Source: Cyanidioschyzon merolae
Taxonomy: Eukaryota
Length of the DNA stretch: 64,000 bases
Assembly: GCA_000091205.1 (NCBI GenBank)
Contig: AP006492.2
Strand: one strand, 5' to 3'
A program made the position numbers and the translations under genes. The notes below the pieces were generated by a model. It made no database searches, was not told the origin of the DNA, and worked only from the letters and a program-made list of their open reading frames with translations. Of this stretch, positions 1 to 51,210 are shown one piece after another; the stretch's first letter is position 1, and each line of letters starts with the position of its first letter.

Positions 1-1432
1 AGTAACCAAAACGATACCGGAGTTGATCTCGAGCACTTCATGAAGCGCACCCCGTGGGCGTTGGGTCCCATCGCACAGGCCTAGGAAAACGGGGACGGAC
101 GAGAGACACGAAGACGAAGACGCCGCGCTGAGCGTGTGGATCCCCCGATGAAGCACACGGTAGCCGTCGCAGTACGTTTCAATCCACAGGTCAGATCCAA
201 CGACCTGAACGAAAAGCAGATGAAGCTGCATACGTTCTTCAGGGCTCCGTACGAGCGCGAGTCGGGCAGCTTGATCGCCAGCGCGCATGCGAACGACTGA
301 AACAGCGGCATCACGGCCAATCTCGACGCTCTGAATACCGCATCGAGCAGCTAATCACGCTTTGATCGCTTCACGCTGACACTTCGTGTACGTCCAAATG
401 GCTCATGTGGACGTCCTTCGGCAGGCCGACACGGAACCGCGTCCGAGTCGCCGAAGTTTTCGGCTTTATGGAGACCCGCAACGGACTTTCGCCAACCCGG
501 TCCATGAGTTGGAAAAAGCAAATCACCGAAAAGCCGTATGCACTGGTGGTAGCCTACGGCAATGCGCGTTCTGTGACGCCTGAAGACAGCGCTCGTTTCC
601 GCTCGACGAGCGCGTGCAACCAGTGCAGACATTGATGCCGCACGATTCCCATCAACGAATTCCGGGCTTCGACGTACGCACATCATGAGCACGGGTGCAC
701 GCTAGATCTGCCTGAGACACAGAGCATGGAACAGAGCCGAATACAATGGATGCTGTATTGTGAACTGAACAAGCGTCAAATGGCGCAGTACCTGGAAAAG
801 GAGACGCATCCTACGATGTGATTCCGCGAAGAGATGATGCGCGCAACCACGAGATGCACCGAAAGCTGAACGCCTCAATCAAGATCCGGAAGCATCTCGT
901 GGTTTCGGAGGATTCAGCGGTATTCTGTGGAGCGACACTTGTGAGCGCATCGTTTTGTATACAGTATATGCATTGTGTTGGCACGTCGAAGACTTGCAGG
1001 GAGAAAAATCAGCCGTCATCCGGGCTGGCATTGGACGCTTGCCTGGAGCAGCGCGCTTCTATAATGGGGTCCAGCAAGCAGGCAAGCATGAATCGCCATA
1101 TATACATTGGGAATGGTCTCCCTGCGTCATTGGTGAACGATAATCGTGTCACGCTATACGCTTTCGCGGAATATCTCGTGGTGCACACCCTGCTTCGCCA
1201 ACAGCTGGCTCCATCTCGCTGCTGACTCGTGCGACCTTCGCGCCACCCCAATGCGATCTCCAGCTGCACAAACACATACACATACACACACTGGAACACC
1301 CGTTCCACACAGGTGTGCTGTCCGCAGACGCCGGCTGTCCGACTGCTACCGATGTGCTCGTATTCACCACCGTTCGTGCGATCTGCAGCGGACGGGGCGC
1401 TATATCATCGGGCATCGTCGATGAAATGTAGT

Positions 1433-1454
1433 GGCGGGCGGAAAACCGCCCGCC
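1433..1454. other. perfect 9-bp stem / 4-nt loop hairpin (GGCGGGCGG-AAAA-CCGCCCGCC) abutting the stop codon and 3' boundary of Fanzor copy A1
   Basis: Read directly from the sequence. It sits at the edge where identity with copy A2 ends, and the equivalent position in copy A2 (about 22350-22370) is degraded. It is a candidate terminal structure of an omega-RNA or 3' UTR. Confidence 0.6.
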
Positions 1455-1919
1455 CTACACGAAATGTCTCCCACTGACGTGCAGACGCCTCCCAGTCTTT
1501 TTGGACCGGCCGCCTACTAAGGGTTTCAACTTTTTCTCATATAATTCCACCTTGAGAGGTTCTTCCGCGAAATTCTCTCTGGTCAACTCTGGAGGTCTTC
1601 TTTCTATCACCGCGCACCTCCTTATATTGATAGCGGCGTTAAAGTCTTGGTTCACAAACTTCATACGTTTCTTGCTATTGATTGTACTTCCGGATGCACC
1701 TAGTCCAGAAACTTTCGCTTTCCTTCCCATGTGCTCTTCTGTTAGCGCTCCGTACTTTTGTATATCTTCAGGGCTCCTCTGGCACTTTTTCATCCCCATC
1801 CTCTGAAGTGTACATCCCAACTCATCGTGTATAGGCGATTTCCGGAACTCATCGATCGGTATCGTAACGAAACGCCTGCGCACTCCTTGTATGTTCTTGT
1901 TGACGGCGCTGGTTGACAC
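1455..1919 (-). CDS. Fanzor/TnpB-like nuclease, C-terminal segment (RuvC-II, Zn-finger-like region, RuvC-III); frame-disconnected from upstream segment
   Basis: The ORF-track protein contains TIPIDEF (RuvC-II Glu), a Cys/His-containing spacer and VNQDFNAAINIRRCAV (RuvC-III Asp, a TnpB/Cas12 hallmark). The listed start codon is GTG. The frame is open upstream to about 1967 but differs from the 1985-3052 frame. Confidence 0.8.
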   Translation of the reverse strand: MSTSAVNKNIQGVRRRFVTIPIDEFRKSPIHDELGCTLQRMGMKKCQRSPEDIQKYGALTEEHMGRKAKVSGLGASGSTINSKKRMKFVNQDFNAAINIRRCAVIERRPPELTRENFAEEPLKVELYEKKLKPLVGGRSKKTGRRLHVSGRHFV

Positions 1920-1984
1920 GCTTTCTGGGTCATCCAGTGCCCTGATCCATACGCTACTAAAAGCCTCTTACTCTTATCTTCCTT

Positions 1985-3052
1985 TCAGGCGCTCAACTGA
2001 TTGAAGAAATCCGCGGTCGCCCGCTGCTTCCCACAGTATAGATTAACGCGCAGACGAGCCCACCGGGGCTTGGCGTACTCTTTCCACGGCGCTTCCCAGT
2101 CAGCAACACGGACTTTCGTGAATTTCAGAAAAGTTCGAAAGTCCGCTCCTCGGCTCGTCACCTCGCTCATAGCTTCCAGGTGCTCGTTCGCTCCTGCATT
2201 CCATGTCTCAACTTTCTTCCTTGCATTCTTTATGCCCGATTCTCGACAGTATCTTGCTCTCGAGAGCTTGAAAAGACGCATGTCTTTCTGACGCAAGTCA
2301 CCGTCACTGCCATCTTCTGCACGCTTCGGTGCTGCGACGGCTATATTCATCGTGTTTCCGGGGTCCACGCCGACGACAAAGTCACTCTCATGCACCTCCT
2401 GCGTCGCAGGATCCGCCTCTTTCTTTTCTTCGTGCTTCGTCAGGGGCGAAGCCGAAGGCACGATAGGACGATCCGCCTTCAACCGCCGACAGTGTGCACA
2501 CATGGACACTCCATCGGTTTCGATCGTGCCCGTGAATACCCTCTGCTTGCTCACTTTGCGACGTTTGAAATAGAAGATATTCTTCCAGTACGTCTCCCGG
2601 CTTTCACCGGTGAACTCCGTCTTCCTTCCATCGAACTGCGGACAGGTCTCCTCCATGACGCCGTAGAGGACTCTGGAGTCGATAATCACATAGTGCGACT
2701 TGATGCTGCACAGCGGAGCGACGTAGAAGCGCTTACCCAGAAGCGCGGCCTTCTGTCGCTCCGGCTCTTCATTTGCTTTCTGACTCGGCTCCATCTCCGC
2801 CTTGCGCTCGAGTTTTCGGTTCAGGAATCCGAAATAGCGCACAATGGGGCGATAACATCTTTCTTCATCTCTTTTCATATCTGGTACCTTTTCCGCTCGA
2901 TTCGCCAGCGCCAAGACTGCACGGTGCTCTTGAATAGCCGCACGGATTACAGAAGCTTCACTCAGGCACCGGCGTGACGTCTTCATGTCGACAAATTCGA
3001 TCTCCTGTACGTTCTGGCGATCGTTCGTGATGCCGTCGATGATGGCCCACAT
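1985..3052 (-). CDS. Fanzor/TnpB-like nuclease, central segment (WED/REC-like N-region and RuvC-I)
   Basis: 355-aa ORF with [19 protein letters not shown] (RuvC-I Asp) about 140 aa before its end, plus an upstream CxxC. It is 98% identical at the protein level to 22895-23962. Its frame is open upstream to about 3180 and overlaps the 2983-3252 ORF in the -1 frame. Confidence 0.75.
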
Positions 3053-3252
3053 CGCGCGGCGAGAGAGGCCGGGGGGTCCAGCGCAAACATGGCGCGTATC
3101 ATGAAGCGTTCGAGGTTCACGATCATATCGTTCTTCAGGTGCGTGAGGTGCTTGACTGCCCCGCTGGTGTAAACACGCAAGTCACCCCTGTATCGAGTAA
3201 CGTTGAAGCGGTATTCAGCATCATTTTTCATGCCGGGCATCCACTCGCTCAT
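2983..3252 (-). CDS. putative N-terminal segment of the Fanzor/TnpB-like protein (out of frame with the central segment)
   Basis: 89-aa ORF starting [21 protein letters not shown], reminiscent of the TnpB N-terminal k-a-y-k-f-R-l-Y-P region. It overlaps the next frame across 2986-3180, which contains a C6/G6 homopolymer at about 3071-3076. Adding one nucleotide there would fuse the frames (..[19 protein letters not shown]..). Confidence 0.4.
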   Translation of the reverse strand: MSEWMPGMKNDAEYRFNVTRYRGDLRVYTSGAVKHLTHLKNDMIVNLERFMIRAMFALDPPASLAARCGPSSTASRTIARTYRRSNLST

Positions 3253-3929
3253 TTCGCCGCGACGTTTCCCCTATAGCAAGCATGAGGTGACGAGTAAAGG
3301 TCTTGTAGAAGGCACGTTCCGAAACCTCAGCTGTTTCCAAGTGCGTCACGTCGCGATACATCTCCCTCGTCATATGCATCGGTCCTCAAGAAGCCTTGCA
3401 AACACTCCCGGAGTTCGACTCGGCACGGTTTCTGATGGCATCTCGCAACTTTTCCCCGTGCGGAGCAGTAGTATGCTTAAGAAGACAGGCTCTCACCACC
3501 ATCTCGTCGTATCGCCGTCTTTCTTGCAGCCTTTATTGTCGGACCTCCCGCTTTTGCTCCTTCGTCCTCTCCTGTTCTTCTGAACTCGGCACCGTTTTTT
3601 GTTTTTTCTCTGCCGGCTGTCGACGCTGTGCCCCCTGGATCCTCCATTTCCTTTTCCATGACTTTCCTTTTTTACATGTTTGGAAATGAGACTTCTTTGA
3701 ACGCTTCTGCTACAAACCGCGAAAAATCACTTGAAAACAGTTACTTGAGGGTTAGTACACAACTGAGGTGAAGGACTGTACTCTGCTACGACTACAACGC
3801 AAATACGACCTGTACGGTAGAGTAACAAGAAAACGATTAGGAAAGATCGCGTTTCCCTTCAACGGCGAGATGCGCGTCGTATCTGCTGGCTACCAGGCAT
3901 GGAGGTGGGCGTATCGAGCGCATTATTTA

Positions 3930-4570
3930 GAACAAAGAACAGAGACTAACAACTTACTAGCAACGATATAACGATTTCTATCCCCATCTACGATGAACAT
4001 TAAAAGGGGAAAACTTTCCGTATCTTCGGAAGTTTAACTTATGGGTGGAGGGTCCCGCAAGCCGGACTAGTCGTCAAGGCTAGTGCTTCGTGCTCTCCCT
4101 CGTGGAAGGCGCCATGATGAGAGCTGCACAGGTCGTCCAAAACGCAGTTTTTTCTGGGACTCGGAGAATGTATGCTGCGTCTGGGCACCGCCCCAGGTAG
4201 TAGTGGGCTTCTAGTATATCGCTTCGCGCTCTCGCAGGCAGAAGGCCTGCCTGCCCAGTTTCCAGGCTCCCGGAATGATAATCAGCCCTGAATCCGGGTC
4301 AAATGTACCATTCTTCGAGACGACGCCTTCACTGGTATGGCAAATCCGTTCTGTCGCTGTGCAGCATGCGCTCCAGCGGTTTAGGCGCTACGACGTGTGC
4401 TCAGTGTAGACACTCGGCGCACGATAGAGCATATGAAACGACCAGTATATCCGCGAGTAAGCTTGAGAAATGGAACTTGAAGATAGGTGCAGCATGATGG
4501 ACGCTTTCGCGAATGCCATCATCCATCCACTCCGAAATCTCGGATTTGTGGTCAATGTACACGCGTACCA
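3930..4570. repeat. paralogous segment X1 (~650 bp), adjacent to the 5' side of Fanzor copy A1
   Basis: About 70-75% similar to 27000-27650 (for example ..aaaggggaaaactttccgtatcttcggaagttt..gcaagccggactagtc.. versus ..aaaggggaaagatttctgtagtttcgaaagttt..gcgagccggacgagtc..). Minus-strand ORFs 4401-4697 and 27414-27668 share ..FKFH..LL.D.LVV.Y..SCA... Confidence 0.5.
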
Positions 4571-6957: not shown

Positions 6958-8190
6958 ATTTCAAATAGGATTGCTTCTTTTACGGTCTGTTATAGTCCAG
7001 ACATGAGGAATCGCGACGGAGTGCCTCGACAGCTCGTGACGGGTACACGCTGCCTCCAACAAGGCGAATGCCTTCGTTCTGGTGCCCCGGCCACTGGGCG
7101 ATGGTGGCGTTTGCGTGAGGGCTATCGTCTGCGGCCGTGGCACCGAGTCCGCCGCTTTTGGTAAAGCGCCTGACTCTATGAGTGTCACTTTTGCTCGTCT
7201 CAGTGCGAAGCTGGGACCCCAAAGCAATCGGACTGCAATCGTTAACGACTTTGTTCTGCTTTAGACCGGGGAGCGTCGCTTTACTGTACGCACCGGCATC
7301 CGAGAGAGCCCAGCGGACGCTGGGCGGCTACGTGGTCCACCGAGCCAGGTGCACCCGAAACCAGCAGAACGTGTTTCGCAACCTGACAAACACGCCGCAC
7401 TGCGCCCCCAGCTTTGTTCTGGGAGCAGTTTGCACGCCGTGGTTACGAAGCCCTCTAACGCTGGTGTCGAGCTAGGTGTGGCGTCGGTCACATCGCTTGC
7501 ACTGCCTCACCGTTCCAGTAGAGCGTGCTCCTTCGAGAAGTCTGCCAGCGGAGCGTACCCTCGAACACGCTTTGGAGTGATACGGCTGTGTTTGCCGCTG
7601 CCGCTGCGCTCATGACTCCGAATTATCTGTGCGCACGGCATGGAAAAGATGCAGATGACTGAGTGTCAGTAGGACGCGTAAATGTGTGTTGTGGCTTTTG
7701 GAACTGGGAGGAGTAGTGCGCACTGCTGAACGCTTCCCCGGATGGGGGCAGCAGTCGCGCAAGCATGTCTCCCTGATTAGTGCAAAGGATGCAGCAGTTC
7801 TTGGGAAAGTTGCGTACATCGCAAACACAAATGTAAGCGCAAGTTGCGTCGCCGTTGATGAGTGCAACCGCATCGGGCGCTGACCCGTCTCCTACTGACG
7901 TCGGCGAGGTTCCCGTTGGAGTTATAGATGGCCAGTGCGCAGTTCCCATGCTGGATTTGGCCTGCGAAATCCATGGGAATAACGACAAGCGCTTTACAAC
8001 CGGTGTCAGCGTAGAATCGAATGCTGAACTGCTGGCTCTGTCCGCGCCTCGCGATTATTTTCCGAAATATTTGAAGGTGTACAGCCTCTGCATTGGACAT
8101 GCAGCAATCAGGGCCCATGGATGCTGACGTGGATTAGGATTCGCGGTCATCGTTTCACAGCGGCTCCTTCAACACTTTGCTGCTGGAATT

Positions 8191-8362
8191 CGATACGCGG
8201 TACCGGAATCAAGATGATTACCGATATGGTCCAACAAGGGCGTCCCTGGAATCAACGATCCCGTTACTTAATGGATACGCGGTACCGGAATCAAGATGAT
8301 TATCGATATGGTCCAACAAGGGCGTCCCTGAAAGCATCGATCCCGTTACTTAATGGATACGC
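8191..8362. repeat. 82-bp tandem duplication (about 2.1 units)
   Basis: gatacgcggtaccggaatcaagatgatta[c/t]cgatatggtccaacaagggcgtccctg..cgatcccgttacttaatg is repeated head-to-tail with 3-4 mismatches. Confidence 0.85.
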
Positions 8363-16716: not shown

Positions 16717-17089
16717 CAACAGAGCAGCACGCGTGTAGCAGCAACGACGCGTTCGTGCAGTCCGTAAATCCGATGCTTTCACGATCCGCTGGAATGCGGC
16801 GTGGTGCAGCGCGCTCGCGGGATCGCACCCCGAGATCCTTTCAGCTCGACGCCGGTGCGTCGGGCTATCTTCCATAATTGGACAAAACCTTCCTAAAAGA
16901 TCAGGGATCCCCAACGGTGCGCGGTGAAGCACCGATCATACCACGCCCTATCTCCAAGGTCCATGGTCCATAATTCTTCTCGGATACATTGGTCACTTTG
17001 TACGTTCTATCGTGTGCCGCGTATCTGCATTCCTGCATCGGTGATCGCGCCTATAGCGCCGTTACGGTCATAGCAGAGAGACAGGACGA

Positions 17090-18440
17090 CGTTGGCGTAC
17101 CCCAGAGGACGTCGGCTCGAGATGGTAAACTGATACCCAGGCGCAGATGCCTCTCAGCCTTTTTTGACCGTCAGACTGCCATCAATTTCAGTTTATTCAG
17201 GCACGCTTCGAGACTGTGAGGCTGCACGAAGCAAGAGGATCGCGCTAGCCCCGAGGGTCTCGTCTCCAGCACCGCACATCATTTGATATTGATAGCGGCG
17301 TTGAAGACTCGGTTCACGAACTCCATGCATGTATTGCCTCTGGTGGTGCTCGCCAATGGAAGGAGTCCTCAAACTAGTGCCCTCAGTGCCATTTGCTGCT
17401 CTGTCAGCTCTCCGTGCTTTTCTATCGTCGAAATGCTCCGCTGCATTCTCCCCATCCCGATCTTTGAATGGTACATCCCAGCTCATCCCTCAGACTTTTT
17501 TGAAAATGAACGCAATTCTTCATGCCATTAGGTGAGGATCTTCCCTAATGGAGAAGGATTCGTTCAAGGAAGATGTAATGTGCCACAGTGTGTCACTGTG
17601 TGCTGGGCGATTCAGCGATTCGGCCAGTGGAGCGGTCGATAATTTCCATGATAGAAAACACTTCTTCAGTGGGGTACAACAACGGAACGTACTACGGAAT
17701 GAAAAGCAGCTCTACCCAGATAGAATCGGCAAATGCTCGATCCCTGGGGAATATTGAAATACCATGTTGTTCAATAGAAGGACGTCTCAATACGTTAGGG
17801 AAACCCTTCAATAATTCGATAAAGTGGTTGGTGCTGTTGTATGCGCCTTTATTACGAGCGATAGCGAGGCCATCAAATGAATGCCCTGCAGCTAGAATAG
17901 ATGATGATGTCCTCGTCTTCTTCGATTTCGATCGTACATACATTGGGCCTCCTTTCCGAGAATACCAATATATGCTCCCACCGTTTCATCCGAAGCAAGC
18001 CTCATCGACTGAGGAAACAAACCAAAGTGCCTGTGCTTCATACCGATCGCGACGTCCCAGGAAAGCTGTGGTAGCGATTTCCGTAGACGATGGCCGTGCG
18101 TGAAACTGGATTTTTTGCCTGTTTCCAAGCTTTTACAGGACCAGATGAACAAGATGTCGAGCAACTGAGACGCCTGTGGCAAATGATACCGACAATTTCT
18201 CTTTCCATACGGTGATCAACGGGTCGCATTCTTCCATTGTCCATAAGCAGTCTTCGAGAATATCGGTTGTTTGCCGCAGAGTGCATATGCTTCTTTGTTT
18301 CAGTGTTCCTCAACCATCGGAGTACTTTGGTATAACTGACTTGAAGGAGAAACACAGTACTCGTTGCACTGTTCAATAAAGAATATATCCCACCGGCAAT
18401 TCGTCTACGATCTATACGGTACATTGCATCGTGATGTCGA
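17090..18440 (-). mobile_element. degenerate chimeric element B1: Fanzor 3' module (about 17090-17490) fused to an unrelated ~0.95-kb segment Y
   Basis: The minus strand at about 17283-17325 encodes MEFVNRVFNAAINI, a RuvC-III motif with the Asp replaced by Val. The plus-strand mirror ORF 17283-17531 parallels the mirror ORF of copy A1. About 17090-18440 is roughly 75% identical to 49855-51210. Confidence 0.55.
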
Positions 18441-19307
18441 TCTCCTGCTACACACCCCAGCAGGTCTCCAGCAAATTGGGTTGGAAGACTAGACGAAGTG
18501 TACGCGGTGCTTTCATTGAGATTTTGCATGTTGCATCTGCGAGACAGGTATTCACTGGAGAGCGCAGTGCAACGAAACCTTGGGTTTCGCCGAAACTCCA
18601 GCGAAGACCGGGTACCATGTTTCGAGAGGACGCCTGGGAGTCCTGTGGTCGCGTGAGCAGGAACAGCTCGCCGGTCTGCTGTTGCTTTCGCAAACGTTTG
18701 GAAAACGGAATCGCGGGTGATCGGAAAGCCATGATTTTGGGCGAAGCAGGTTTTACGAGTTCAGTGCGTCCAGTAATCCAGCCACGGCGGTTGTGAGGAC
18801 CTGCCGCAACCCGCTCTGTTGTGGCAGCTATGACATAGACTTGGTGCCCACACTGTTCAGCAGCGTCTGGTGCATGATCCTGGCCAAAGCTCGCACGTGT
18901 CAGCGTTTCCGCCGAGGGCCATAGACGCTCGTGTCGCCAGCGTTTTCAGAGACAGTGTTCCGAGCGTTCGCGTGGCCTTACCTCGCAACCGAAAGGAAGC
19001 GTTTGTCTCCTAGAGTTCGGAATGCTGTTGTCTAAGGTGCGGCGTTTCAGAGTCAGAACACGGACGCGACGCCGCGGATGTTTCGCTGTCCACTCGGCCG
19101 GCTAGGGCGTTCGACGACGGCTCGGTTGCACGCTTGTTCTGAAGCTCTCTGTTTTTCAGCTGCGAGCTTCTTGGAGTTAGGTATCGCCTGCGAGAAGTGG
19201 TGCTTGCCTGAGGGTTCTTGGATCAGATAGATCGGGGGACGCATGCCGGTGCACTCGATGCAGACGGTGGTATTGAGGCGTTGAGCGCGAGAACGCCCAT
19301 TTTCCCT

Positions 19308-22223: not shown

Positions 22224-22829
22224 TCACCGCCTCGTCTGGAGATGGAGGATGCACTTTAGTATCGAGAATGATGCCGTGCACGCGACCTCGGGTGACACTC
22301 GCGAACGCCGTTCAAAAGTCGAAAGCAGTCGCCAGCGGTTTACAGTAGTGGCGGCGAACGCGCCCAAGACAAAACTTCTCCAACTGACGTGCAGACGCCT
22401 CCCAGCCTTTTTGGACCGGCCGCCTACTAAGGGTTTCAACTTTTTCTCATATAATTCCACCTTGAGAGGTTCTTCCGCGAAATTCTCTCTGGTCAACTCT
22501 GGAGGTCTTCTTTCTATCACCGCGCACCTCCTTACATTGATAGCGGCGTTAAAGTCTTGGTTCACAAACTTCATACGTTTCTTGCTATTGATTGTACTTC
22601 CGGATGCACCTAGTCCAGAAACTTTCGCTTTCCTTCCCATGTGCTCTTCTGTTAGCGCTCCGTACTTTTGTATATCTTCAGGGCTCCTCGGGCACTTTTC
22701 CATCTCCACCCTCTGAAGTGTACATCCCAACTCATCGTGTATAGGCGATTTCCGGAACTCATCGATCGGTATCGTAACGAAACGCCTGCGCACTCCTTGT
22801 ATGTTCTTGTTGACGGCGCTGGTTGACAC
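22224..22829 (-). CDS. Fanzor/TnpB-like nuclease C-terminal segment (RuvC-II, RuvC-III), copy A2
   Basis: Carries the same TIPIDEF and VNQDFNAAINVRR motifs. Its C-terminus reads through into flanking DNA because the stop codon present in copy A1 is absent here. Confidence 0.75.
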   Translation of the reverse strand: MSTSAVNKNIQGVRRRFVTIPIDEFRKSPIHDELGCTLQRVEMEKCPRSPEDIQKYGALTEEHMGRKAKVSGLGASGSTINSKKRMKFVNQDFNAAINVRRCAVIERRPPELTRENFAEEPLKVELYEKKLKPLVGGRSKKAGRRLHVSWRSFVLGAFAATTVNRWRLLSTFERRSRVSPEVACTASFSILKCILHLQTRR

Positions 22830-22894
22830 GCTTTCTGGGTCATCCAGTGCCCTGATCCATACGCTACTAAAAGCCTCTTACTCTTATCTTCCTT

Positions 22895-23962
22895 TCAGGC
22901 GCTCAACTGATTGAAGAAATCCGCGGTCGCCCGCTGCTTCCCACAGTATAGATTAACGCGCAGACGAGCCCACCGGGGCTTGGCGTACTCTTTCCACGGC
23001 GCTTCCCAGTCAGCAACACGGACTTTCGTGAATTTCAGAAAAGTTCGAAAGTCCGCTCCTCGGCTCGTCACCTCGCTCATAGCTTCCAGGTGCTCGTTCG
23101 CTCCTGCATTCCATGTCTCAACTTTCTTCCTTGCATTCATTATGCCCGATTCTCGACAGTATCTTGCTCTCGAGAGCTTGAAAAGACGCATGTCTTTCTG
23201 ACGCAAGTCACCGTCACTGCCATCTTCTGCACGCTTCGGTGCTGCGACGGCTATATTCATCGTGTTTCCGGGGTCCACGCCAACGACAAAGTCACTCTCA
23301 TGCACGTTCTGTGTGGCAGGATCCGCCTCCTTCTCATCTTCATGCTTCGTCACGGGCGAAGCCGAAGGCACGATAGGACGATCCGCCTTCAACCGCCGAC
23401 AGTGTGCACACATGGACACTCCATCGGTTTCGATCGTGCCCGTGAATACCCTCTGCTTGCTCACTTTGCGACGTTTGAAATAGAAGATATTCTTCCAGTA
23501 CGTCTCCCGGCTTTCACCGGTGAACTCCGTCTTCCTTCCATCGAACTGCGGACAGGTCTCCTCCATGACGCCGTAGAGGACTCTGGAGTCGATAATCACA
23601 TAGTGCGACTTGATGCTGCACAGCGGAGCGACGTAGAAGCGCTTACCCAGAAGCGCGGCCTTCTGTCGCTCCGGCTCTTCATTTGCTTTCTGACTCGGCT
23701 CCATCTCCGCCTTGCGCTCGAGTTTTCGGTTCAGGAATCCGAAATAGCGCACAATGGGGCGATAACATCTTTCTTCATCTCTTTTCATATCTGGTACCTT
23801 TTCCGCTCGATTCGCCAGCGCCAAGACTGCACGGTGCTCTTGAATAGCCGCGCGGATTACAGAAGCTTCATTCAGGCACCGGCGTGACGTCTTCTTGTCG
23901 ACAAATTCGATCTCCTGTACGTTCTGGCGATCGTTCGTGATGCCGTCGATGATGGCCCACAT
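22895..23962 (-). CDS. Fanzor/TnpB-like nuclease central segment (RuvC-I), copy A2
   Basis: 355 aa, [17 protein letters not shown], near-identical to 1985-3052. Confidence 0.75.
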
Positions 23963-24162
23963 CGCGCGGCGAGAGAGGCCGGGGGGTCCAGCGCAAACAT
24001 GGCGCGTATCATGAAGCGTTCGAGGTTCACGATCATATCGTTCTTCAGGTGCGTGAGGTGCTTGACTGCCCCGCTGGTGTAAACACGCAAGTCACCCCTG
24101 TATCGAGTAACGTTGAAGCGGTATGCAGCATCATTTTTCATGCCGGGCATCCACTCGCTCAT
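23872..24162 (-). CDS. putative N-terminal segment of Fanzor/TnpB-like protein, copy A2 (frameshifted relative to central segment)
   Basis: Near-identical to the 2983-3252 ORF and overlaps the next frame in the same way. Confidence 0.4.
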
Positions 24163-24946
24163 TTCGCCGCGACGTTTCCCCTATAGCAAGCATGAGGTGA
24201 CGAGTAAAGGTCTTGTAGAAGGCACGTTCCGAAACCTCAGCTGTTTCCAAGTGCGTCACGTCGCGATACATCTCCCTCGTCATATGCATCGGTCCTCAAG
24301 AAGCCTTGCAAACACTCCCGGAGTTCGACTCGGCACGGTTTCTGATGGCATCTCGCAACTTTTCCCCGTGCGGAGCAGTAGTATGCTTAAGAAGACAGGC
24401 TCTCACCACCATCTCGTCGTATCGCCGTCTTTCTTGCAGCCTTTATTGTCGGACCTCCCGCTTTTGCTCCTTCGTCCTCTCCTGTTCTTCTGAACTCGGC
24501 ACCGTTTTTTGTTTTTTCTCTGCCGGCTGTCGACGCTGTGCCCCCAGGATCCTCCATTTCCTTTTCCATGACTTTCCTTTTTTACATATTTGGAAATGAG
24601 ACTTCTTTGACCGCTTCTGCTACAAACCGCGAAAAATCACTTGAAAACAGTTACTTGAGGGTTAGTACACAACTGAGGTGAAGGACTGTACTCTGCTACG
24701 ACTGCAACGCAAATACGACCTGTACGGTAGAGCAACAAGAAAACGATTAGGAAAGATCGCGTTTCCCTTCAACGGCGAGATGCGCGTCCCGTCTCATGCC
24801 CGCCAGGTATCCCGGGTGCGCCTAGAGTGCGCGCCGCGTGCGCCACCGCAAGCGTTACAAATCGAAACACGCGCCGCAGCGCCAACGAACGCGCCATGCT
24901 TCATGCTTAGCGTTTTCGGGGGCTCACGTACTAGACGCCGCACAGT

Positions 24947-34101: not shown

Positions 34102-34499
34102 GTGCGCGCACGCGTACGCCTCCTCCGACGTACACGCTCAGACACGCTCATATACGCAGGTCATTCCGTATTCTGGGCGCTGTGCAGTGCGCTACCGGGC
34201 GCATCAGCATCAGCGTCGTCGTCAGCGGCGGCGGCGGCGGGGGGATCGGGAGCTGGGCAAACATCGCCGTCGATGCGTGCTCGCCAGCGCCATCTACCAT
34301 GCGCGTGTCGGATCGATGATTAGCGTTTGTCACCTGAGCTGTGTTCCACCTCCGGGAGCATGTACGCAAATGGCTTTTCGCGTTGTATAGCAAAAATGTT
34401 CGATATTCGTTCATTTTGACGAGACAAAAATCCAACGGAAACGTATGGACATGGTCGTCGGCGATCCTGGAGGCCTGTCATCACCGGCTACCTGAAAGA

Positions 34500-34885
34500 G
34501 AAACGTAAAAACCCTCTTCTCGTTGAACATCGAGCGAATGAAGAGCAGGTTTCGATGAGGAAGAAGAGCGGATATAGGCGAGAGAGAGCGTTTAGCCTGC
34601 GGGAAGATGACGAGACTTTAGTGCCACAGAGTGCGCGAGTTCTTGGAATCCTCGCATTGATGCGCCTTACTAGAGGCAATACACGCGTTGAGTTTGTGAA
34701 TCGAGACTTTCATGCTGCTACCTGTATCAGATGATGTTTGGTGCTGGAGACGAAATCCGAGGCGCTGGGGCGAGCCAACTTCGTGAAATAGTCTCGCAGG
34801 GTCGAAGTATCGAAGGAGAAGCTGAAATCCATAGCGGGCGGCCGGTCCAAGAAGGCTGGGAGGCGACTGCAGGTGTGGTATTCAT
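34500..34885 (+). pseudogene. degenerate 3'-terminal fragment of a Fanzor-A-like gene (RuvC-II remnant through C-terminus), opposite orientation to the full copies
   Basis: Plus-strand translations align with the copy A1 C-terminus across frame breaks: ..LNIERM.. (compare IPIDEF), ..RVEFVNRDFHAA.. (RuvC-III) and ..EKLKSIAGGRSKKAGRRLQV.. (compare KKLKPLVGGRSKKTGRRLHV). It has internal stops and is about 70-75% identical at the nucleotide level. Confidence 0.6.
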
Positions 34886-36702
34886 TTACCCTAAATAGTC
34901 GTGGGATATTTCCACTCCGCTGACTTGCATGCATGAGGCGGGGCTTTCCTGGTACGCGTCCAGATTTCTGCACCATTCCTCGAGGGTCCACCAGTCATCA
35001 CCTCCAGGCGTGCATCCAATCGGAGATACTGGTTCGACTGCGCGATCCACTTGATGTCGAGTGCCTGTCGTAAGCGCTCGCTCCGACGCATATAGCGCCC
35101 CATCGGACAACGTACAGAAACAGAACAACTCTGCGATACGCTTGTGGATGTTGGCTGCATGCGTGGTTCACCATCGCAATTCAGTGCCGGGCAATGTACG
35201 CACTCACGGCGGTTGCCGCGAGCTGGCACTCATCTAGGCGCCCCATACCAGTCCTGCCTTCACATATCGACTGTGGCGGTGACGCATCTCGCGTTGCTGC
35301 GAGCGTTCATGGCAAGCACGGTATCCGACACGTCGCTGGGTGGATCTAAGATCGATCCCCAACAGATAGACTGGACTGGACGGGAGTTGCTGAAATGTAG
35401 ATGCGTCTCGGAAGGAGCGGCGTTTTCTTCGTTCATTGCCGATAAAACGCGTGCACCTAGGGGAATCTTCCCAGATTCAGCTATTTCATACCATAAAAAT
35501 ATGCGCGTCCATGGATCCATGCGTGGATGGCGATAAACTCGCGACTTGTCGCGAGCGCAACATCGACGACCTGAGCGCGGCCTACGACGCATTCAGAACG
35601 GGAACAAAGATAGCCGCCATGCAGACCTCCGCTGTATCAGACTCTGCACCACGAGACGCTCTGCAGCGCGAAAGCCGCTGCGTCCTTGCCAGCGAACGCA
35701 AACGCAAGCCTAGCCTTTACGACAAATGGGCTGCGAGAGCGCGAGAGAGATATGCCAATATCGCACGCGGACCGCAGAGGGATTCGGGCCCAGATCCAAT
35801 AATGTTGACCTCCAGCGGAACGCGGATGTGGTGATTGCAAGGACGTGTCTGCCATTGACGAGAACTCCGGGCATGCTCCGTGCCCGGGCGGCAGTTTCTC
35901 TTCCCGTTCTGCGAGCAACAGACGATAATCCCATCTCCGGTTGTATGCATCCCAGCGCCCCGGTTACCCGGGTATTCAAGGTCCCTGCTAAGAGTCCGGT
36001 GAGCAGCTTTAGGCACGGCGCTTCTGTAATACCGACGATTGATTCTCGTGCCATCACGTGATGCCTTGGAAAAGATGTTCACGGCGGAGGATAGCTCCGG
36101 ATTCTCCTGCGCTAATGTCGCGAAAACGCAGGTTTGCATATACCAGTTCGCCAACAGGCGAACAGTAGACCCCACGACGCAAGCTAGTCCAAGCCTGTTC
36201 GCAGACATTGTGAGCACGTCGCACGTCTGTTTACGAAACTACCAAACTCGCCGACACTGTTCAGAGACTGCTCTCGACTTGTCAATGCCCAATGCTCCAC
36301 AAGCTCACGCAAATCCCATCAAGATCATCAAAAGACCTTCACGCGCATCGCAATACCATCCGCGGCAACGATGGTGCTCCGAATCATCATCAGAGCGCGT
36401 TGTTGCGAAGCAGGTACCAGCATGTCCATGGCTCTCTAGAGCTCAGCACACGTCCCGCACGAGAAGCCGCGTCTCGCGAGGACCAAAGTCGCTTCCAGTA
36501 CCAGTGCGATGGTGTTGACGGCCATGCAAGGCTCCACCCAAAGGCAGCCCTACCTTGTCGCAACAACGCCGAGGTCGTATCGAGGTCGCTATACTGCGCC
36601 AAATCTCCACAGCGACCTGCACTCGTGCCTACAGCTTCCGTTTTTCGTTGCCATGCTGATCATGCATCTAGAAACCTCGTCGATTGTTTGCGTTTCGTAT
36701 TG

Positions 36703-42494: not shown

Positions 42495-44401
42495 TGCACC
42501 AGAATCGTGACAATGCGAGAGATGCTCGGCAGGCGCACATCCCGCGAGAAGCTTTCCCTAGCGTCCGATCAAGGCAAATCCTTTTCCTAAGCTTTATTCT
42601 GGTGCATCCGCGAAGCTGGGCATTGCACTCGAAGACACTGAGCCAAAGCCTGTTTACTTGAAAGCGCTTTGTCTGAATGAGGAACGGTTGCACTGCTTGG
42701 CAGGATTCGATTCGAGATACGATATTCCGGGCGCCTAATGACAGAGGTTTTTCGGAGCCTTTCGACCATGCGTAAAAATGACATGCGCTCGCGGACATGG
42801 TTTCGGGTACCAGCGCTGGCGTGCTGGCGTTTTAGTAAGCGCAGTGCACGCTGGAAGACGTGAACCAGCATGCTGGTTTTGTTCTTGTCTGGTTTTCTCC
42901 CCGGTATTCAATTAAAGTCTAGTGTTCTGTGGATTGGAGAAAGTTCGCGGAAGGAGTTGATGCCGCCATGATTAGCTTGCGAGAACAACGACCTTCGTTG
43001 TTCAAGCCACGCTTTCTACGGTCAGCCAGTGAATGAACTGCCCTTGTCGTAGTGCTTAGTGTAGACAGAGCGCACCCGAAACGCAGCTTGTCGAATACGA
43101 TCTACACGATTGTCTCTTCGTCAGTGCATTCCAATCCATTTGCTGTCTAAGAAAAACGATTAGAGTATACACAGGATGTGAAAGCTCCGCACCACTGATT
43201 CGAACGGTGATGAAGAGTCGCAAATGGACAAGGACAAAAGTGCGCGTCTACGGGAGATCGTCACTTGCTGAACGTCACAGAATGGATTTCGCACTGAAAT
43301 GCGAATGCTCTCAACAGGAGGTATGGGAGCTCTTCATTTTCGGTGAGACTTGCCTAGGGAAATGCTAGCCTTGAATACCGGTACCTAACACGGGAAAGAC
43401 CGCTGTTCGTCAAGCAGAGGCAAGCGAGCGTGACGACAACACCAGCCCTAACAACGATTTTATGGTGTGTTCGCCTACGAATTGTTGCAAGGGCTGAATT
43501 GTTCAACACCGCATTCTTCGTTGACGCGCTTTGTGACTTGTGCTCGCCAGATTCTTGTGTCTTGTTCGTAGATACCATGGACTATGATCACTCAAATGCG
43601 CTGAAGCGGTTCGCATTAGCGATTCGTGTTGAGCAGTTCTTCGTGCTAGCATCTTCTCCCTAGTTCAATCGAGTCCGAGGCGTGTTCTCCTTTTCGAATG
43701 CCATATTCAAGCTCATGCTTCTATGGATGAGTCATTCGTATCTGTGATACGGTTTTTCGACGAACCCCTCTGCGTCGACTGGTTCTACACATTCACCTGC
43801 CGTGCATTGCAGTGCTGGTTCGCTGCTCGTACGCGGGAGAAAGCGGAACGGCGCGCTTCGGTCCACGGACGTGGTCGAGCCGGACCAGGTGACGAAAAGG
43901 TAGTTGAGGAATGGGAGAAACAAACGAAGAACAGGCGAGTTTCAGTGTCCACGTCTACGTATTGGATCTGAATACTGCGGAATAAAGGATACGGAGTAGT
44001 GCGTTAGTATCCATGCTAGCCCGCCAAGTCATGAGAAGGCGAGGAAACTCCTGAACAAAGAAGAGAAAAATCCTCGCGAAACGACACCAAGCAAAGATCG
44101 ACAGGAGGAACGGTTTACGCGGAAACAATACCCTGAAATCACTGTCGAGGCCTGCCTAACAAAACTCCTCACCAGGAATAATTTCTCAAAAAGTGCAGTG
44201 CAAGACGCCAGTGGGGATCACGTCGCTCTATACTCGAGAATGTCGTGCCTGGCTCCGCTCGCGAGGACGCACCGCATCAAGCAGTTGCTTGTAGGAGTTC
44301 CGGTGTCGGAACAGCTGGCTACCGACCTTCCTCTCGCATACCTAGACCAAACCAGCATGCGACAACACAGCTGATGCTCCAGACAGAAGACGACATACCG
44401 C

Positions 44402-44800
44402 ATGATCGTCGGATTAGAGCGTCGCACACATACACACTTCCCAGAATACCTGGAGGCATTGGCGCGACACGTCGGTAACCGGAGTGTCTACAGAGCAGGT
44501 GCCCAAAAGCATCATACCAGCCTCATAAACCATATGCTGGTCACCGTCGATTGGTTCGTGCAGCGTACACTGGAGGCGTTGCGCGCTCAACGTACTGTCC
44601 CAGCTAAGTTGGGACTGATAAACGGCATTCGCGGAGTATCGATGACGGTCAACGACGAGCTGGTGACTGCGGAGACGATCGAGGAGCTCGCGAGTACGGA
44701 ACAGATGTCGCAGTGGAAGCGAGTTCGCTTCCGATCGTCCAAGCTCATGGCGTTGCTCTCGGAATCGGGTACACGGAACTCGTATCCGAAGCATGTTTGA
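44402..44800 (+). CDS. hypothetical small protein (132 aa)
   Basis: Protein-like composition (..EYLEALARHVG..VDWFVQRTLEALRAQR..ETIEELASTEQMSQWKRVRF..) in an otherwise gene-poor 3.5-kb stretch. A longer antisense ORF overlaps it, so the call is uncertain. Confidence 0.2.
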   Translation: MIVGLERRTHTHFPEYLEALARHVGNRSVYRAGAQKHHTSLINHMLVTVDWFVQRTLEALRAQRTVPAKLGLINGIRGVSMTVNDELVTAETIEELASTEQMSQWKRVRFRSSKLMALLSESGTRNSYPKHV

Positions 44801-45994
44801 AACGGGATACATGCCTTTTTCGAATACTGCGCTTCTGAGATTTCCTGCACTGAGCGCTCCTAAGCAAAGCAGACTTGGTTCCTGGATTCGAGCACCCAAC
44901 TTCCTCGGGGATCTATTCGATGTATTTCCCATACGACACATCGAGACCCAGTACATCTCCGCAGACAATGTTGTCCTGTGCTGATTGGCCTCCTCAGTGG
45001 GCTACCACTGGTCTCTGCACACAAGTATGAAGCACTCGAACGTCTTCACCAAGGGCAGAAGCGGGGCTCGTTCCTGTGCAATTGCCATCCATGAGTTCAA
45101 GATAATTCACATAAATCACGGGCACTAGTGTACACAGAAACTGGTATGGACCGGGAGAATGAAACAGAGATGGATTCACGAGGTGGGTTACGAGAAGCTG
45201 ATCGGACGCCAGACGGAGAAGCTCCTCCCCGTGGGACGCTTACTTTGGCGTGACTCAATGAGCAAAAATGCACGCAAGCATTTGCTGCACAAAGCTTGAA
45301 CGCCTTGGTCAACATCAGGCAATGTCCTGTGATCCAGTAGCGCCCAGCTGTTTCGTGTCCAGCGAATTTTCCCGAACATCGTCTTGCTCCCTGCGTGGGC
45401 AACCTGTTAAAACGCTAAACACTTGTGATAAGAAAATCACTGCCAACGAGACACAGAATTGCATTACCGCCTGGAACAAGGCACTGGTAGTCTACCGTTC
45501 AGCTGTCCGAACAGACCGGAGCGCCTTATCCATACATCGTGAACGGTTTTCATCGGCAATCGATGAACAAATAGGGTAGTCCACGACTAGACATTTCTGC
45601 GCATCTGGTGCGCTCCGTTCAAGATGACACGACACCTATCGTGACGCAAGCGCCCCCAGCGGTACCTGGGTAGGCACCACGCGATCACTGAGAGTGTACG
45701 TCGCAGCCTCTTCCGCGGCATGCGCAGGTCGCAGCGCCCGCCCGTATATCTACGCGATGCTCCTCGGAGTCTGCCTAATCAGATCGCGCAGCGTCATCAG
45801 AGGCGCTGTCAGTAAAAACCGAAACAGGTTACCTAAAACATATTGCATGCTGCGACTTATGGTAAAGATGTGCGCAGTGACGGCTGGATACCTGCTCTCC
45901 TGGGGCCGATGCAACCAGGAGTCACGTCCCCTGGCGGGCAGACGCGAAGCCGCTTCAACGGCTGGCGTAGAGCCTGCCGCCCCGCCCGCATTCG

Positions 45995-49854: not shown

Positions 49855-51210
49855 AACTATAGACGGTGACTATAACGGAAAACGTTCTACGGTCATGGAG
49901 GATAAACTGGTATCCCTTCACGGGCACCCCGCACCAGCCTTTTCTTGACCGGCCACCTGCCATCGTTTTTAGTTTCTCCTTGCACACGTCGAGCCGGAGC
50001 GCGTGCTCTGTGAAGTTGGATCGCGTCAGCTACGCAGGCCTCTCTTTCAGCACTGCACATTTTTCTGACACTGAGGGCGGCGTTGAAGTCACGGTTCACG
50101 AGCTCCATGTGATTATCGACAATGATGGAAGTCGTCAGTGCAAGTATTGCCAGAACTTTTCCCCTCTGTGCCGTATGCTGCTCTGTCAGAACCCCGTTCC
50201 TTTCTATCGCCGAAGCGCTCCGTTGCGTTTTCCATCTCAACCTTTTGATTCTTTATTTTTGAAAATGAACGTATTTTTATGCCCTGTTTGAGGACCTTGT
50301 TGGAGGGATTAGAACTTTCGGAAGGAAGACGAAAGATGCACTGGTTTTACCGTGTGCTGAACGCTTCAGCGATTCGCCCAGTACAGCGATCAATTCTTTT
50401 CAGGATTGCAAAGACACCTGCAATGGAGTTCAACCACGGAGCGTGCTGCGGCATGAAAAGCAGCTCTACGCGGTAGAATCGAAAAAAGCTCGAACTCAAC
50501 GGGAATAGTCAAATGCCACGTTGTCCAGTAGGAGGATATCGCCACCGGTCTGGGGAGACCCTTCAATGATTCGACAAAGTGGGTGCTGTTTTATGATCCT
50601 TGTCTCAAGCGAAACTGAGGCCGCCAAATCATTCCACTGCAGCTAGAAAAGATGATGATGTCCTCGTTCTCTTCTACATCGATTGTACCCACAACTTGCT
50701 CCCTGCTCGGCGAATACTCATGTACGCTCCGACCGTTTCGTCGGATGCAAGTCTCATCGACTCAAAGAACAGACCGACGTCGCCGTGCTCCCTACAGATC
50801 GCCGAGTTCCAGAAAGTTTTTCATGGGTGCCGTTTCGGTGGAAGATGGCCGTGCGTGAACTAGAAGTTTTATTGGGACTGTCTCCCAGTGTTTCCCGGAC
50901 AACACGAACAAACTTTAGAGAAACAGAGCTGCTCGTAGTTGCAACAATCGTCGCTTTTGCTTTCCTTTTGGTGATCAACGAGTCGTTTTCTACCATTGAT
51001 CGCAAGCACGCTTTGAGAATACCAGTTTTGACGCAGAGCGCATCCACTTGTTTCTTTCAGTGTTCTGCAACCATCTGAGTACTGTGGTATGATTGATCTG
51101 GACGAGGAATGCAGTCCTCGTTGCACTGTTCAGTAAAGAATATACCGTATTGGCAATTCGTCTACGACCTATACAGTACCTTGCATATTGATGTCGATCT
51201 CCTGGTATAT
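49855..51210 (-). mobile_element. degenerate chimeric element B2: Fanzor 3' module plus Y segment
   Basis: Collinear homology with 17090-18440 across both the Fanzor-derived part and the Y part. The conserved GGCCGGTCAAGAAAAGG core lies at about 49940-49960 on the minus strand. Confidence 0.55.
49893..50240 (-). pseudogene. truncated Fanzor/TnpB-like ORF retaining Zn-finger-like region and RuvC-III (VNRDFNAALSVRKM), lacking RuvC-I/II
   Basis: The ORF-track protein aligns with the copy A1 C-terminal segment (..YGALTEEHMGRKAKVSG.. to NGVLTEQHTAQRGKVLA.., VNQDFNAAINI to VNRDFNAALSV). The homologous upstream sequence is replaced by segment Y. Confidence 0.6.

Follow-up and report, generated by a model that had tools for sequence, protein, structure and literature searches.

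The guide RNAs of the characterized Fanzor1 nucleases derive from the 3', or right, end of the element and are composed of three stems without a pseudoknot, with a double-stranded stem adjoining the guide (Saito 2023, PMC10432273; Yoon 2023, PMC10711439; Jiang 2023). In SpuFz1 of Spizellomyces punctatus, whose RNA and activity are experimentally established, the scaffold lies entirely after the stop codon and within a 30-nt terminal inverted repeat (PMC10432273). The scaffold of GtFz1 of Guillardia theta overlaps the last codons (17 aa), and in the insect-virus Fanzor1 RNAs inverted repeats and target duplications enter the scaffold (PMC10711439). In the bacterial IS200/IS605 element ISDra2, which has a TnpA transposase, the TnpB RNA combines 3'-terminal sequence of the nuclease gene with the right end of the element, and contains a pseudoknot. 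According to Bao & Jurka (2013), the Fanzor1-carrying transposon of Cyanidioschyzon merolae, CMe-1A (listed as Fanzor1 CMe-1), lacks terminal inverted repeats, and target duplications are not known for it.

We analyzed a stretch of 64,000 nucleotides of C. merolae (contig AP006492.2; hereafter, the window), in which a first-pass annotation had proposed the last 350–450 bp of a Fanzor-like gene as an omega-RNA scaffold. On balance, we favor a narrower reading: the conserved region is the 3' end of dead CMe-1A copies, conserved as coding sequence and by descent, and a right-end unit of about 100 nt is the likely RNA scaffold. In both CMe-1A and SpuFz1, multi-copy Fanzor1 elements of a eukaryotic genome carry a conserved unit of about 75–100 nt between the ORF end and the right end, followed by a variable flank, and in both the unit also occurs on short gene-less elements (the “ghost loci” of S. 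punctatus and the free-standing units of CMe-1A). Unlike SpuFz1, CMe-1A lacks inverted repeats, and its candidate scaffold extends about 35 nt into the ORF. This overlap, about 12 aa, resembles that of GtFz1, whereas the RNAs show no detectable sequence similarity and the proteins are weakly related (9cer, E=0.028). The insect-virus RNAs share three stems, no pseudoknot and a terminal stem adjoining the guide, comparable to the predicted stem 3 of CMe-1A, but the repeats and duplications that enter their scaffold are not known for CMe-1A. ISDra2 resembles CMe-1A in the proposed origin of the RNA, in the putative subterminal hairpins and in the reported absence of inverted repeats and target duplication; in contrast, no transposase was seen in CMe-1A.

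An exact protein match assigned the window to C. merolae 10D. On sequence similarity, the region at 1458-1920 is the 3'-terminal part of a CMe-1A Fanzor1 gene. It codes for RuvC-II and RuvC-III, for a zinc-ribbon region that is degenerate, and for a C-terminal tail of basic character. A profile built from 12 members of the family matched the solved Fanzor1 structures of PpFz1 (9cf0, E=7.8e-16) and SpuFz1 (8gkh, 1.8e-12), and more weakly that of GtFz1; the search of solved structures with a single family sequence gave no match, and only the profile search worked. In the 12-sequence alignment, the RuvC catalytic D/E/D residues were invariant (motifs GxDPGNT, VDEFRTS and NRDFNAA), as was the TDG motif T358/D359/G360 (IETDGV), a feature of the Fanzor1 WED domain (Yoon et al. 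2023, PMC10711439). The fragments of copy A1 still carry the RuvC motifs VGVDPGN, IDEFRKS and NQDFNAA. The C4 zinc ribbon between RuvC-II and RuvC-III, a signature described by Bao & Jurka, was absent, the consensus having only two Cys and two His (THHELGC...EKC). The Pfam zinc ribbon PF07282 matched neither the A1 ORFs nor P0002, P0003 and P0005; the distant relative P0117 alone scored, at 25.2 bits, below the cut-off of 26.3. Pfam searches of the window ORFs and intact homologues yielded nothing useful. The precomputed Pfam assignment of the homologues is PF26935, merely a DUF (DUF8286). Intact relatives are present outside the window (e.g., P0003, 752 aa); the family numbers ~150 genomic copies, in addition to >500 metagenomic relatives. 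The Fanzor1 gene is the sole long ORF of the element.

As shown in Table 1, the five copies of the C-terminal part listed by the first-pass annotation were borne out by tblastn. Both A1 and A2 are pseudogenes. In A1 an in-frame TGA at about 1985-1987 replaces a Leu of the family and the frame shifts near 1890, 3060 and 3270; A2 shares the premature TGA and the frameshifts, differs from A1 by 32 clustered substitutions, and has lost the canonical stop (TTG). The two are 98.7% identical over 1451-3878 and 22361-24788, respectively, the identity ending within the hairpin that follows the gene. Introns were ruled out as the cause of the broken frames, because what breaks them is an in-frame stop together with frame changes by single bases, and intact relatives read straight through. 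The Fanzor1 system is defunct in the window: each gene is a pseudogene, stem 3 of the unit described below is missing from A1, and stems 1 and 3 of A2 are weakened. Copies C and D are 71% identical along their whole length. The post-stop sequence of C is a much diverged version that aligns up to position 248 of 270 of the HMM; for D and E, the profile-HMM alignment shows similarity fading some 10–25 nt before the stop, followed by a different tail, which in D begins after GGxGGCGTCTGC. Copy F consists of two pieces, 44057-44629 and 45221-45415 (+). Truncated derivatives retaining the 3' part have multiplied.

Table 1. Fanzor1-derived features of the window.
Feature	Position	Strand	Description or basis
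Copy A1, C-terminal part	1458-1919	-	tblastn
Copy A2, C-terminal part	22368-22829	-	tblastn
Copy C, C-terminal part	17138-17505	-	tblastn
Copy D, C-terminal part	49901-50231	-	tblastn
Copy E, C-terminal part	34480-34887	+	tblastn
Copy A1, Fanzor1 (CMe-1A) pseudogene	1455..3592	-	ORFs and frames; tblastn with P0003 covers aa 1-787
Copy A2, same pseudogene as A1	22365..24502	-	Sequence comparison, tblastn
Copy C	17084..18450	-	1.3-kb non-coding repeat; 3' ~370 bp Fanzor1-derived, aa ~665-781
Copy D	49901..51207	-	Repeat family of C; Fanzor-derived part 49901-50231
Copy E	34480..34890	+	Isolated Fanzor1 3' fragment, aa ~700-786, D-type tail
Copy G	139..791	+	Strongly decayed remnant, aa ~484-688; tblastn
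Copy F	44057..45415	+	Decayed, internal deletion; aa 7-187 and ~700-750; tblastn
A1 right-end unit, truncated	1429..1495	-	Stem 1 1461-1491, stem 2 1433-1454, no stem 3
A2 right-end unit, full length, mutated	22303..22405	-	Covariance model 78 bits; ends ...GGCGTT(C)
A2 flank past right-end boundary, candidate guide site	22284..22302	-	Inferred; boundary uncertain by ~3 nt or more

The first-pass annotation held that the long 3' module is constrained in its nucleotides rather than its codons. Across 48 non-redundant related loci, variation was instead codon-wise: diversity at positions 1, 2 and 3 was 0.127, 0.100 and 0.255, and third positions varied 2–3.8 times more than first and second positions. 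Diversity at four-fold sites was 0.24 in the tail versus 0.27–0.31 upstream, and we judged the tail to be no more conserved. Nor is the antisense frame kept open, as had been supposed; it contained a mean of 2.24 stops per 146 codons and was fully open in 2% of copies, equal to the 2% of codon-shuffled controls, and the antisense ORF is due to chance. The core GGCGGCCGGTCCAAAAAG is indeed present, at 1497-1514; the GGCGGCCGGTCC core is well preserved, including in copies C, D and E, which are non-coding fragments. A rise in conservation toward the 3' end was dropped as evidence because the loci had been picked for their resemblance to the C-terminal 146 aa, and this choice biases the gradient. 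The module had been described as common to all five copies to just past the stop; this was true of the coding-derived part, while the right-end unit that reaches past the stop was matched by a covariance model only in A2 and weakly in A1. Judged by these comparisons, the 350–450-bp module is mostly ordinary coding sequence, kept alike by constraint on the amino acids and by the shared ancestry of the transposon copies.

The right-end unit comprises the last ~35 nt of the ORF and ~65 nt beyond the stop, so that about two thirds of it lies after the stop. Its end at ...GGCGTT is sharp: family similarity persists for about 65–73 nt beyond the stop and then collapses. The unit also stands alone on an unrelated repeat (L007:659-758, L023:345-429 and L034:276-367), where it starts at GGAAGCGTCTGCACG and shares its 5' and 3' limits with the gene-borne unit. 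In one copy its last 49 nt are tandemly duplicated, and at seven related loci, representing five or six distinct places, a second unit lies in the same orientation 3.1–3.6 kb upstream of the right end of a full-length copy. All 94 matches of a covariance model to the unit were on the sense strand of the gene. Within the window, the model matched A2 and, weakly, A1 (46 bits over 1390-1495), with no match in copies C, D and E. The stems of A2 lie at 22371-22401 (stem 1), 22350-22364 (stem 2) and 22304-22333 (stem 3), whereas in A1 family similarity ends after CCACTAC (1429). The end of A1/A2 identity had been taken for the element end; the family consensus is ~45 nt longer, and this stretch is present in A2 and absent in A1. 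Rfam 15 gave no match at gathering score in the whole window and none at E<=10 over 22200-22900, and a tRNA search found none. Additional searches aimed at more divergent copies each yielded a single place, too few for added power.

On the sense strand, three hairpins are possible: stem 1 in the ORF end, stem 2 just past the stop, and stem 3, of 11–12 bp, ending at the element boundary ...GGCGUU. The perfect hairpin GGCGGGCGG-AAAA-CCGCCCGCC reported for A1 was confirmed at 1433-1454, immediately past the minus-strand stop codon (1455-1457). It corresponds to the middle stem of the unit, enlarged specifically in this copy. Pairing of stem 2 is kept through different sequences (GGCGGG/CTCGCC, GGCGCG/CGCGCC and GGCGGC/GTCGCC), and stem 3 occurs in two variants with different upper stems, each of 11–12 bp. 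Stem 1 showed almost solely one-sided G-U/G-C changes in a model-guided alignment. The stems contain many G-U pairs, with G-U/A-U/G-C exchanges that are workable on the sense strand only. Compensatory changes were seen in hairpins 2 and 3 in the model-guided alignment, and covariation exceeded controls there but not in an unguided alignment. In the model-guided alignment, which was fitted to the proposed structure and leans towards it, 82.9% of cells were paired, two-sided changes occurred in 16 pairs versus 10.4 ± 1.8 after shuffling (0/500) and 8–13 with slid partners, and the covariation score was 0.166 versus 0.047–0.089 for slid partners. RNAalifold on unguided MAFFT alignments of 65 or 42 copies gave 0–3 pairs, and covariation in the unguided alignment was not above slid controls.

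Folding of the right-end unit gave different results for copies A1 and A2: in A1 the 9-bp hairpin dominates (z = -4.76), and A2 folds worse than its shuffles (z = +2.26). Compared with dinucleotide shuffles, L018 gave z = -3.18 on the sense and -1.10 on the antisense strand, and L029 gave -1.87 and -0.31. Well-kept copies are predicted to out-fold dinucleotide shuffles on the sense strand alone. The sense-over-antisense difference in folding energy was significant; a control coding stretch showed the same sign more weakly, and part of the advantage is therefore G+U composition. Diversity in the 60 nt after the stop was 0.34, about the four-fold-site level (0.27–0.31), and about 0.15 in short cores; thus, there is no clear purifying selection on the primary sequence, the short cores excepted. 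A long-range helix from the consensus prediction, between the AVVGG codons (CAGUAGUGGGUGGC) and post-stop GCCGCCACUACUG, was not adopted; it was 84% paired with few compensations, was not above slid controls, and is broken in L014, whose right end is otherwise intact.

By analogy with the characterized Fanzor1 systems, the right-end unit may be transcribed, processed and used as a guide scaffold. It would be excised from the gene transcript, be bound by an intact Fanzor1 protein, and carry about 15–20 nt of the adjacent flank as guide. The candidate RNA would be sense, ~110–125 nt long, with its 5' end near GGGAGGCG and its 3' end 15–20 nt past GGCGUU. Among the papers surveyed, none reports a discrete right-end sense transcript reaching into the flank for C. 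merolae. The general idea of an omega-RNA at the Fanzor1 3' end is retained here, whereas the 350–450-bp module, the A1 guide and the antisense ORF are not. In particular, the A1 guide had been placed at 1395-1432; the A1 unit is lost after 1429, and since its last third is missing, 1395-1432 is not a guide by the family boundary. An extension of this proposal, in which the unit is a free-standing guide-RNA cassette copied onto unrelated repeats, the many dead copies and ghost units form a dispersed library of guides taken from their flanks for use in trans by the few intact nucleases, and the carrier is a eukaryotic element with hairpin ends like those of IS200/IS605, is speculative and, in our estimation, quite unlikely.

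The ~100-nt unit could instead be only the right end of the transposon, a DNA-level cis signal whose subterminal hairpins are read on single-stranded DNA by a transposase, which we regard as possible but doubtful. Subterminal hairpins act as single-strand DNA signals at the ends of IS200/IS605 elements and Helitrons. The absence of terminal inverted repeats and known target duplications in CMe-1A (Bao & Jurka) is in keeping with such a signal, as are the sharp right-end boundary, the tandem duplication of the last 49 nt in one copy, and the multiplication of truncated 3'-retaining derivatives. GC-rich hairpins, moreover, lie near both ends: stems 2 and 3 on the right and, where the core begins on the left, GCGCTC-GGT-GAGCGC or GCGCG-CTCGATA-CGCGC. 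The left-hand hairpin fits a DNA-level transposition signal as well. The left end is placed only approximately, two different 5' extensions (X and Y) lying ahead of the common core. However, the element showed no transposase gene, the G-U-rich stems and their exchanges function on the sense strand only, and Fanzor1 nucleases require a guide RNA that maps here in all tested cases. Further, Bao & Jurka describe TE-N2_CMe as corresponding to no more than the 5' 635 bp of CMe-1A and as nevertheless present in ~70 copies; if this is correct, the right end is dispensable for spread. The signal reading does not wholly exclude the scaffold reading, because both functions overlap in known systems.

It is unlikely, in our view, that nothing functional lies beyond the gene and that the post-stop sequence is a 3' UTR, a terminator or polyadenylation region, or neutral sequence alike by kinship. 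Post-stop diversity near that of four-fold sites and the negative unguided structure tests would agree with this, as would the finding that the last 146 codons are open in merely 10 of 50 copies, by which the compared sequence is mostly dead. Such an account is opposed by the separate occurrence of the unit, delimited identically at its 5' and 3' ends, on another repeat, by the 11–12-bp hairpins formed by both sequence variants of stem 3, and by model-guided covariation exceeding both controls. That the whole last 350–450 bp, RuvC-II/III coding sequence included, is a nucleotide-constrained RNA scaffold with a conserved antisense frame and the A1 guide at 1395-1432 is highly improbable. The coding-derived 3' part common to all five copies and the preserved GGCGGCCGGTCC core of C, D and E speak for it; variation nevertheless has a clear three-base periodicity, four-fold sites do not evolve more slowly in the tail than elsewhere, the antisense frame is not kept open, the family boundary lies ~45 nt past the end of A1/A2 identity in a stretch that A1 lacks, and the free-standing unit starts merely ~35 nt ahead of the stop.

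Fanzor1 was already known in C. merolae in 2013, and by 2023 it was clear where Fanzor guide RNAs lie; the right-end unit, which we favor as the RNA scaffold, is therefore what one would expect in a known family. New here are a bounded ~100-nt candidate that can form three hairpins and ends at ...GGCGTT, the evidence for a right-end unit without the gene, and the corrected position of the guide start. C. merolae, an alga that tolerates heat and acid, has a very small genome and is genetically tractable; a native Fanzor1/guide pair could be tested in it directly. Both window copies are dead, and a native C. merolae pair might be of interest to those seeking heat-stable, compact editors.

All five Fanzor copies of the first-pass annotation were recovered in tblastn searches that used the three ORF pieces of A1 and an intact homologue as queries; two additional remnants also emerged (table). 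The minus-strand ORFs 1455-1919, 1985-3052, and 2983-3252 are pieces of one gene (A1), for which a search of 5.8 billion proteins returned 117 relatives, all of them unnamed metagenomic proteins and several 580-750 aa in length. Compared with these relatives, A1 carries an in-frame TGA in place of Leu (..FFNQLSA*KED..) and frame changes near 1890, 3060, and 3270; because its near-identical counterpart A2 has the same defects, both window copies are defunct pseudogenes. A 12-sequence family profile matched solved Fanzor1 structures (9cf0, 7.8e-16; 8gkh, 1.8e-12; 9cer, 0.028), and the family has the RuvC-type motifs GxDPGNT, VDEFRTS, and NRDFNAA, an invariant TDG, and a degenerate zinc ribbon of two Cys and two His, with no match to the zinc ribbon PF07282. 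CMe-1A is one Fanzor1 family of C. merolae, already listed at about 150 copies of about 3 kb and about 80% identity to the consensus, without inverted repeats and with some copies still intact (Bao & Jurka 2013).

Copies C and D both belong to a non-coding repeat of 1.3 kb with the 5' end A[GC]CAGGAGATCGACATCA; ~950 bp of it lack a conserved ORF (relatives in the metagenome loci L033, L035, L063, and L073), and the 3' 370 bp derive from a Fanzor gene. The exact match of its 555-aa ORF (table) shows the window to be nuclear DNA of the red alga. The window, with a G+C content of 54.7%, is unusually rich in repeats for so compact a genome; no tRNAs and no Rfam matches were found across its whole length.

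Positions of Fanzor copies, repeats, and right-end units in the window or in related metagenome loci (L numbers)
Feature	Position	Strand	Basis or remark
A1, C-terminal part	1458-1919	-	tblastn
A2, C-terminal part	22368-22829	-	tblastn
Copy C, Fanzor-derived part	17138-17505	-	tblastn
Copy D, Fanzor-derived part	49901-50231	-	tblastn
Copy E	34480-34887	+	tblastn
Additional remnant	139-791	+	tblastn
Second additional remnant	44057-44629 with 45221-45415	+	tblastn
555-aa ORF	5290-6957	-	exact match to BAM80277.1 / XP_005534884.1 of C. merolae 10D
1.3-kb repeat of C and D	17084-18450 and 49935-51207		71% identical
1.27-kb repeat pair	30734-31996 / 55192-56457		98.7% identity
240-bp repeat, three copies	27934-28175, 31712-31951, 56173-56412		~70%
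Inverted 200-bp pair	8019-8219 and 31867-32067		
Short tandem duplication	8192-8362		
Fragments with the alternative tail, window	34781-34971; 49822-50014	+; -	
Fragments with the alternative tail, loci	L017:421-611; L033:3975-4164(-)		
Right-end unit alone, inside a different repeat	L007:662-757, L023:348-446, L034:279-378		profile HMM
Right-end units ahead of full-length copies	L007:659-758, L023:345-429, L034:276-367, L013:425-512, L014:426-513, L033:761-857, L035:761-857		

Related loci came from a single scan of metagenomes, queried with the aligned C-terminal 146 aa; it gave 79 loci from hot-spring metagenomes and 48 after removal of near-duplicates. An apparent rise in conservation towards the 3' end was set aside as evidence, since loci picked by likeness to the C-terminal region itself are biased for such trends. 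Among the 48 loci, similarity runs past the stop codon as GGGCGCGTTTGCCGCCACTACTGTACACCGCCGG(CGA)CGTCGTTCGACTTTCGAAAGGCGTT and then falls to background. A2 carries this whole stretch, ending at ~22303/22304, and in A1 the match stops at CCACTAC (1429), beyond which A1 is unrelated. The perfect hairpin GGCGGGCGG-AAAA-CCGCCCGCC is indeed present at 1433-1454, immediately past the stop codon on the minus strand (1455-1457), but the fading of A1/A2 identity there, formerly taken as the end of the module, is not the end of the element, because the family sequence continues further in A2. The same boundary, with the loss of A1 after 1429, contradicts the proposed A1 guide at 1395-1432. Over 1451-3878 / 22361-24788, A1 and A2 share 98.7% identity, and their 32 substitutions are clustered (at 1456-1472, 1780-1799, and 2396-2443). 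This block is not the element; as family-level similarity of A1 and A2 extends past both block ends, including upstream of 3878 / 24788, the block resembles the product of gene conversion between two older copies. A module common to all five copies through the stop was confirmed for the C-terminal coding part and not beyond it: in D and E similarity ends about 10-25 nt short of the stop, where a different tail takes over, and C keeps the post-stop sequence only in much diverged form. The alternative tail, which follows GGAGGCGTCTGC as ..GGTAT.CA.TTTACCCT..ATAGTCGTG.AACGTTTTC, replaces the CMe-1A right end, and its junction coincides with the 5' boundary of the ~100-nt free-standing unit described below.

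The assertion that constraint acts on nucleotides and not codons did not hold. Diversity over the last 146 codons of the 48 loci was 0.127/0.100/0.255 at codon positions 1/2/3; third positions were 2-3.8 times more variable than the others from RuvC-II to RuvC-III, and the ratio was 1.64 in the 36-codon tail, where four-fold-site diversity (0.24 vs 0.27-0.31 upstream) lay within scatter. The core CTTTTTGGACCGGCCGCC is present at 1497-1514; most reading frames continue through the tail GQPLKVELYEKKLEAVVGGRSKKTGRRLHVSWRRFV and end at a shared stop, so the GGCGGCCGGTCC core encodes GGRS. In some copies, L031 and L054 (GGATAACC) and L041 and L045 (GGATAGCC), codon 112 of the 146 is a stop; the locus type that encodes P0003, the longest intact protein, which ends ..RENFIG, is apparently among them. 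In these copies the 36-aa tail is untranslated, yet the downstream sequence is close to the consensus. The antisense frame, thought to be conserved as open, averaged 2.24 stops per 146 codons and was fully open in 2% of copies, compared with 3.35 stops and likewise 2% in codon-shuffled controls; the alike antisense peptides simply reflect homologous DNA. Since the last 146 codons were open in only 10/50 copies, the divergence compared is mostly post-insertion decay, which limits what diversity measures can show.

Fold prediction on the consensus and well-kept copies allowed three sense-strand hairpins in a ~100-nt right-end unit: stem 1 (GAGGCGUCU...AGACGUUUU) within the final 13 codons, stem 2 (GGCG..CGCC) immediately 3' of the stop, and stem 3, a terminal hairpin of 11-12 bp. 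The perfect hairpin corresponds to stem 2, although its 9 perfect pairs are confined to A1, with 4-6 in other copies; inner pairs vary among copies (GG/CU, CG/CG, GC/GU). Stem 3 forms a long hairpin in either of two variants, ..GACGUCGUUCGA-CUU-UCGAGCGGCGUU and ..CAGCGUUUUUC-UUUU-GAAAGGCGUUG. Relative to dinucleotide shuffles, the fold z-scores were -3.18 sense and -1.10 antisense for L018, -1.87 and -0.31 for L029, -4.76 sense for the truncated unit of A1, and +2.26 and +1.95 for A2. The sense fold was lower than the antisense in 51/57 copies, with the same sign in a control coding stretch (42/54). On an unguided MAFFT alignment, RNAalifold predicted no structure, and pair counts were no better than slid controls. 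A covariance model of 13 gap-free copies and the three stems hit 94 places, every one in the orientation of the gene; within the window its sole hits were A2, at 78 bits, and A1, at 46 bits. In the model-guided alignment, which leans towards the structure, 82.9% of cells pair, with 16 two-sided pair changes (shuffles 10.4 +/- 1.8, 0/500; slid 8-13) and a covariation score of 0.166 (slid 0.047-0.089). On this structure-leaning basis the covariation is encouraging without being decisive; the signal comes from the inner stem 2 pairs and the whole of stem 3, and stem 1 changes are almost only G-U/G-C. Many pairs are G-U, exchanging with A-U and G-C, which is workable on the sense strand only. Diversity in the 60 nt after the stop was 0.34, about the four-fold-site level, and about 0.15 in short cores (GGCG, CGCCACTACTGTACAC).

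In a search with a profile HMM covering the final 270 nt, three places matched over the last ~100 nt only, from GGAAGCGTCTGCACG on. These free-standing units resemble the gene-less 'ghost loci' of S. punctatus, which share the omega-RNA region (Saito et al. 2023, PMC10432273). They and four further right-end units (table), by themselves or accompanied by a Fanzor 3' fragment, are located 3.1-3.6 kb upstream of a full-length copy's right end in the same orientation, which suggests a head-to-tail arrangement or insertion beside an existing right end. In L029:738-797, the terminal 49 nt of the right end are tandemly duplicated (CCGCCACTACTGTACACGCCCGACGTCGTTCGACTTTCGAGCGGCGTTT twice).

The right-end hairpins could also serve transposition as signals at the DNA level, like those of IS200/IS605 or Helitrons, because a GC hairpin likewise stands at the start of the core element that all copies share and the element is without inverted repeats (Bao & Jurka 2013), giving subterminal hairpins at both ends; against this, no transposase was seen in the element. 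This reading and that of an RNA scaffold are not exclusive, as right end and scaffold overlap in known systems. The core-start hairpin, ~75 nt before CGCGCATGTCGCCGTTGAAGGG (in the window about 3950-3960), is subfamily-specific, GCGCTC-GGT-GAGCGC vs GCGCG-CTCGATA-CGCGC, and occurs in loci with either of two 5' extensions, Y (L007, L013, L017, L019, L034, L042) or X (L055, L063, L064, L067, L069); loci other than X type carry Y. Directly upstream of the A1 core lies a 68.5% identical repeat (3934-4560 / 27013-27630). Its core-proximal part (window ~3879-4030) matches the X extension in the five X loci, and the repeat is probably TE-N2_CMe, a 635-bp element described by Bao & Jurka.

The candidate right-end unit fits the pattern of known Fanzor1 RNAs. 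S. punctatus Fanzor1 has a 75-nt scaffold after the stop and then a 14-15-nt guide, and in G. theta 17 aa of the gene fall within the scaffold (Saito et al. 2023, PMC10432273); insect-virus Fanzor1 RNAs have three stems, with a terminal double-stranded stem and no pseudoknot (Yoon et al. 2023, PMC10711439). Jiang et al. (2023) predicted Fanzor RNAs from the 3' conservation drop. In the literature searched, including supplementary files of Saito et al., no mention of a C. merolae Fanzor RNA was found. The original observation was largely real. Its reading as an omega-RNA scaffold at the 3' module was correct as to the kind of feature and mistaken as to its extent and details. The Fanzor family is already known, and the candidate scaffold would be a new example of a known RNA type.
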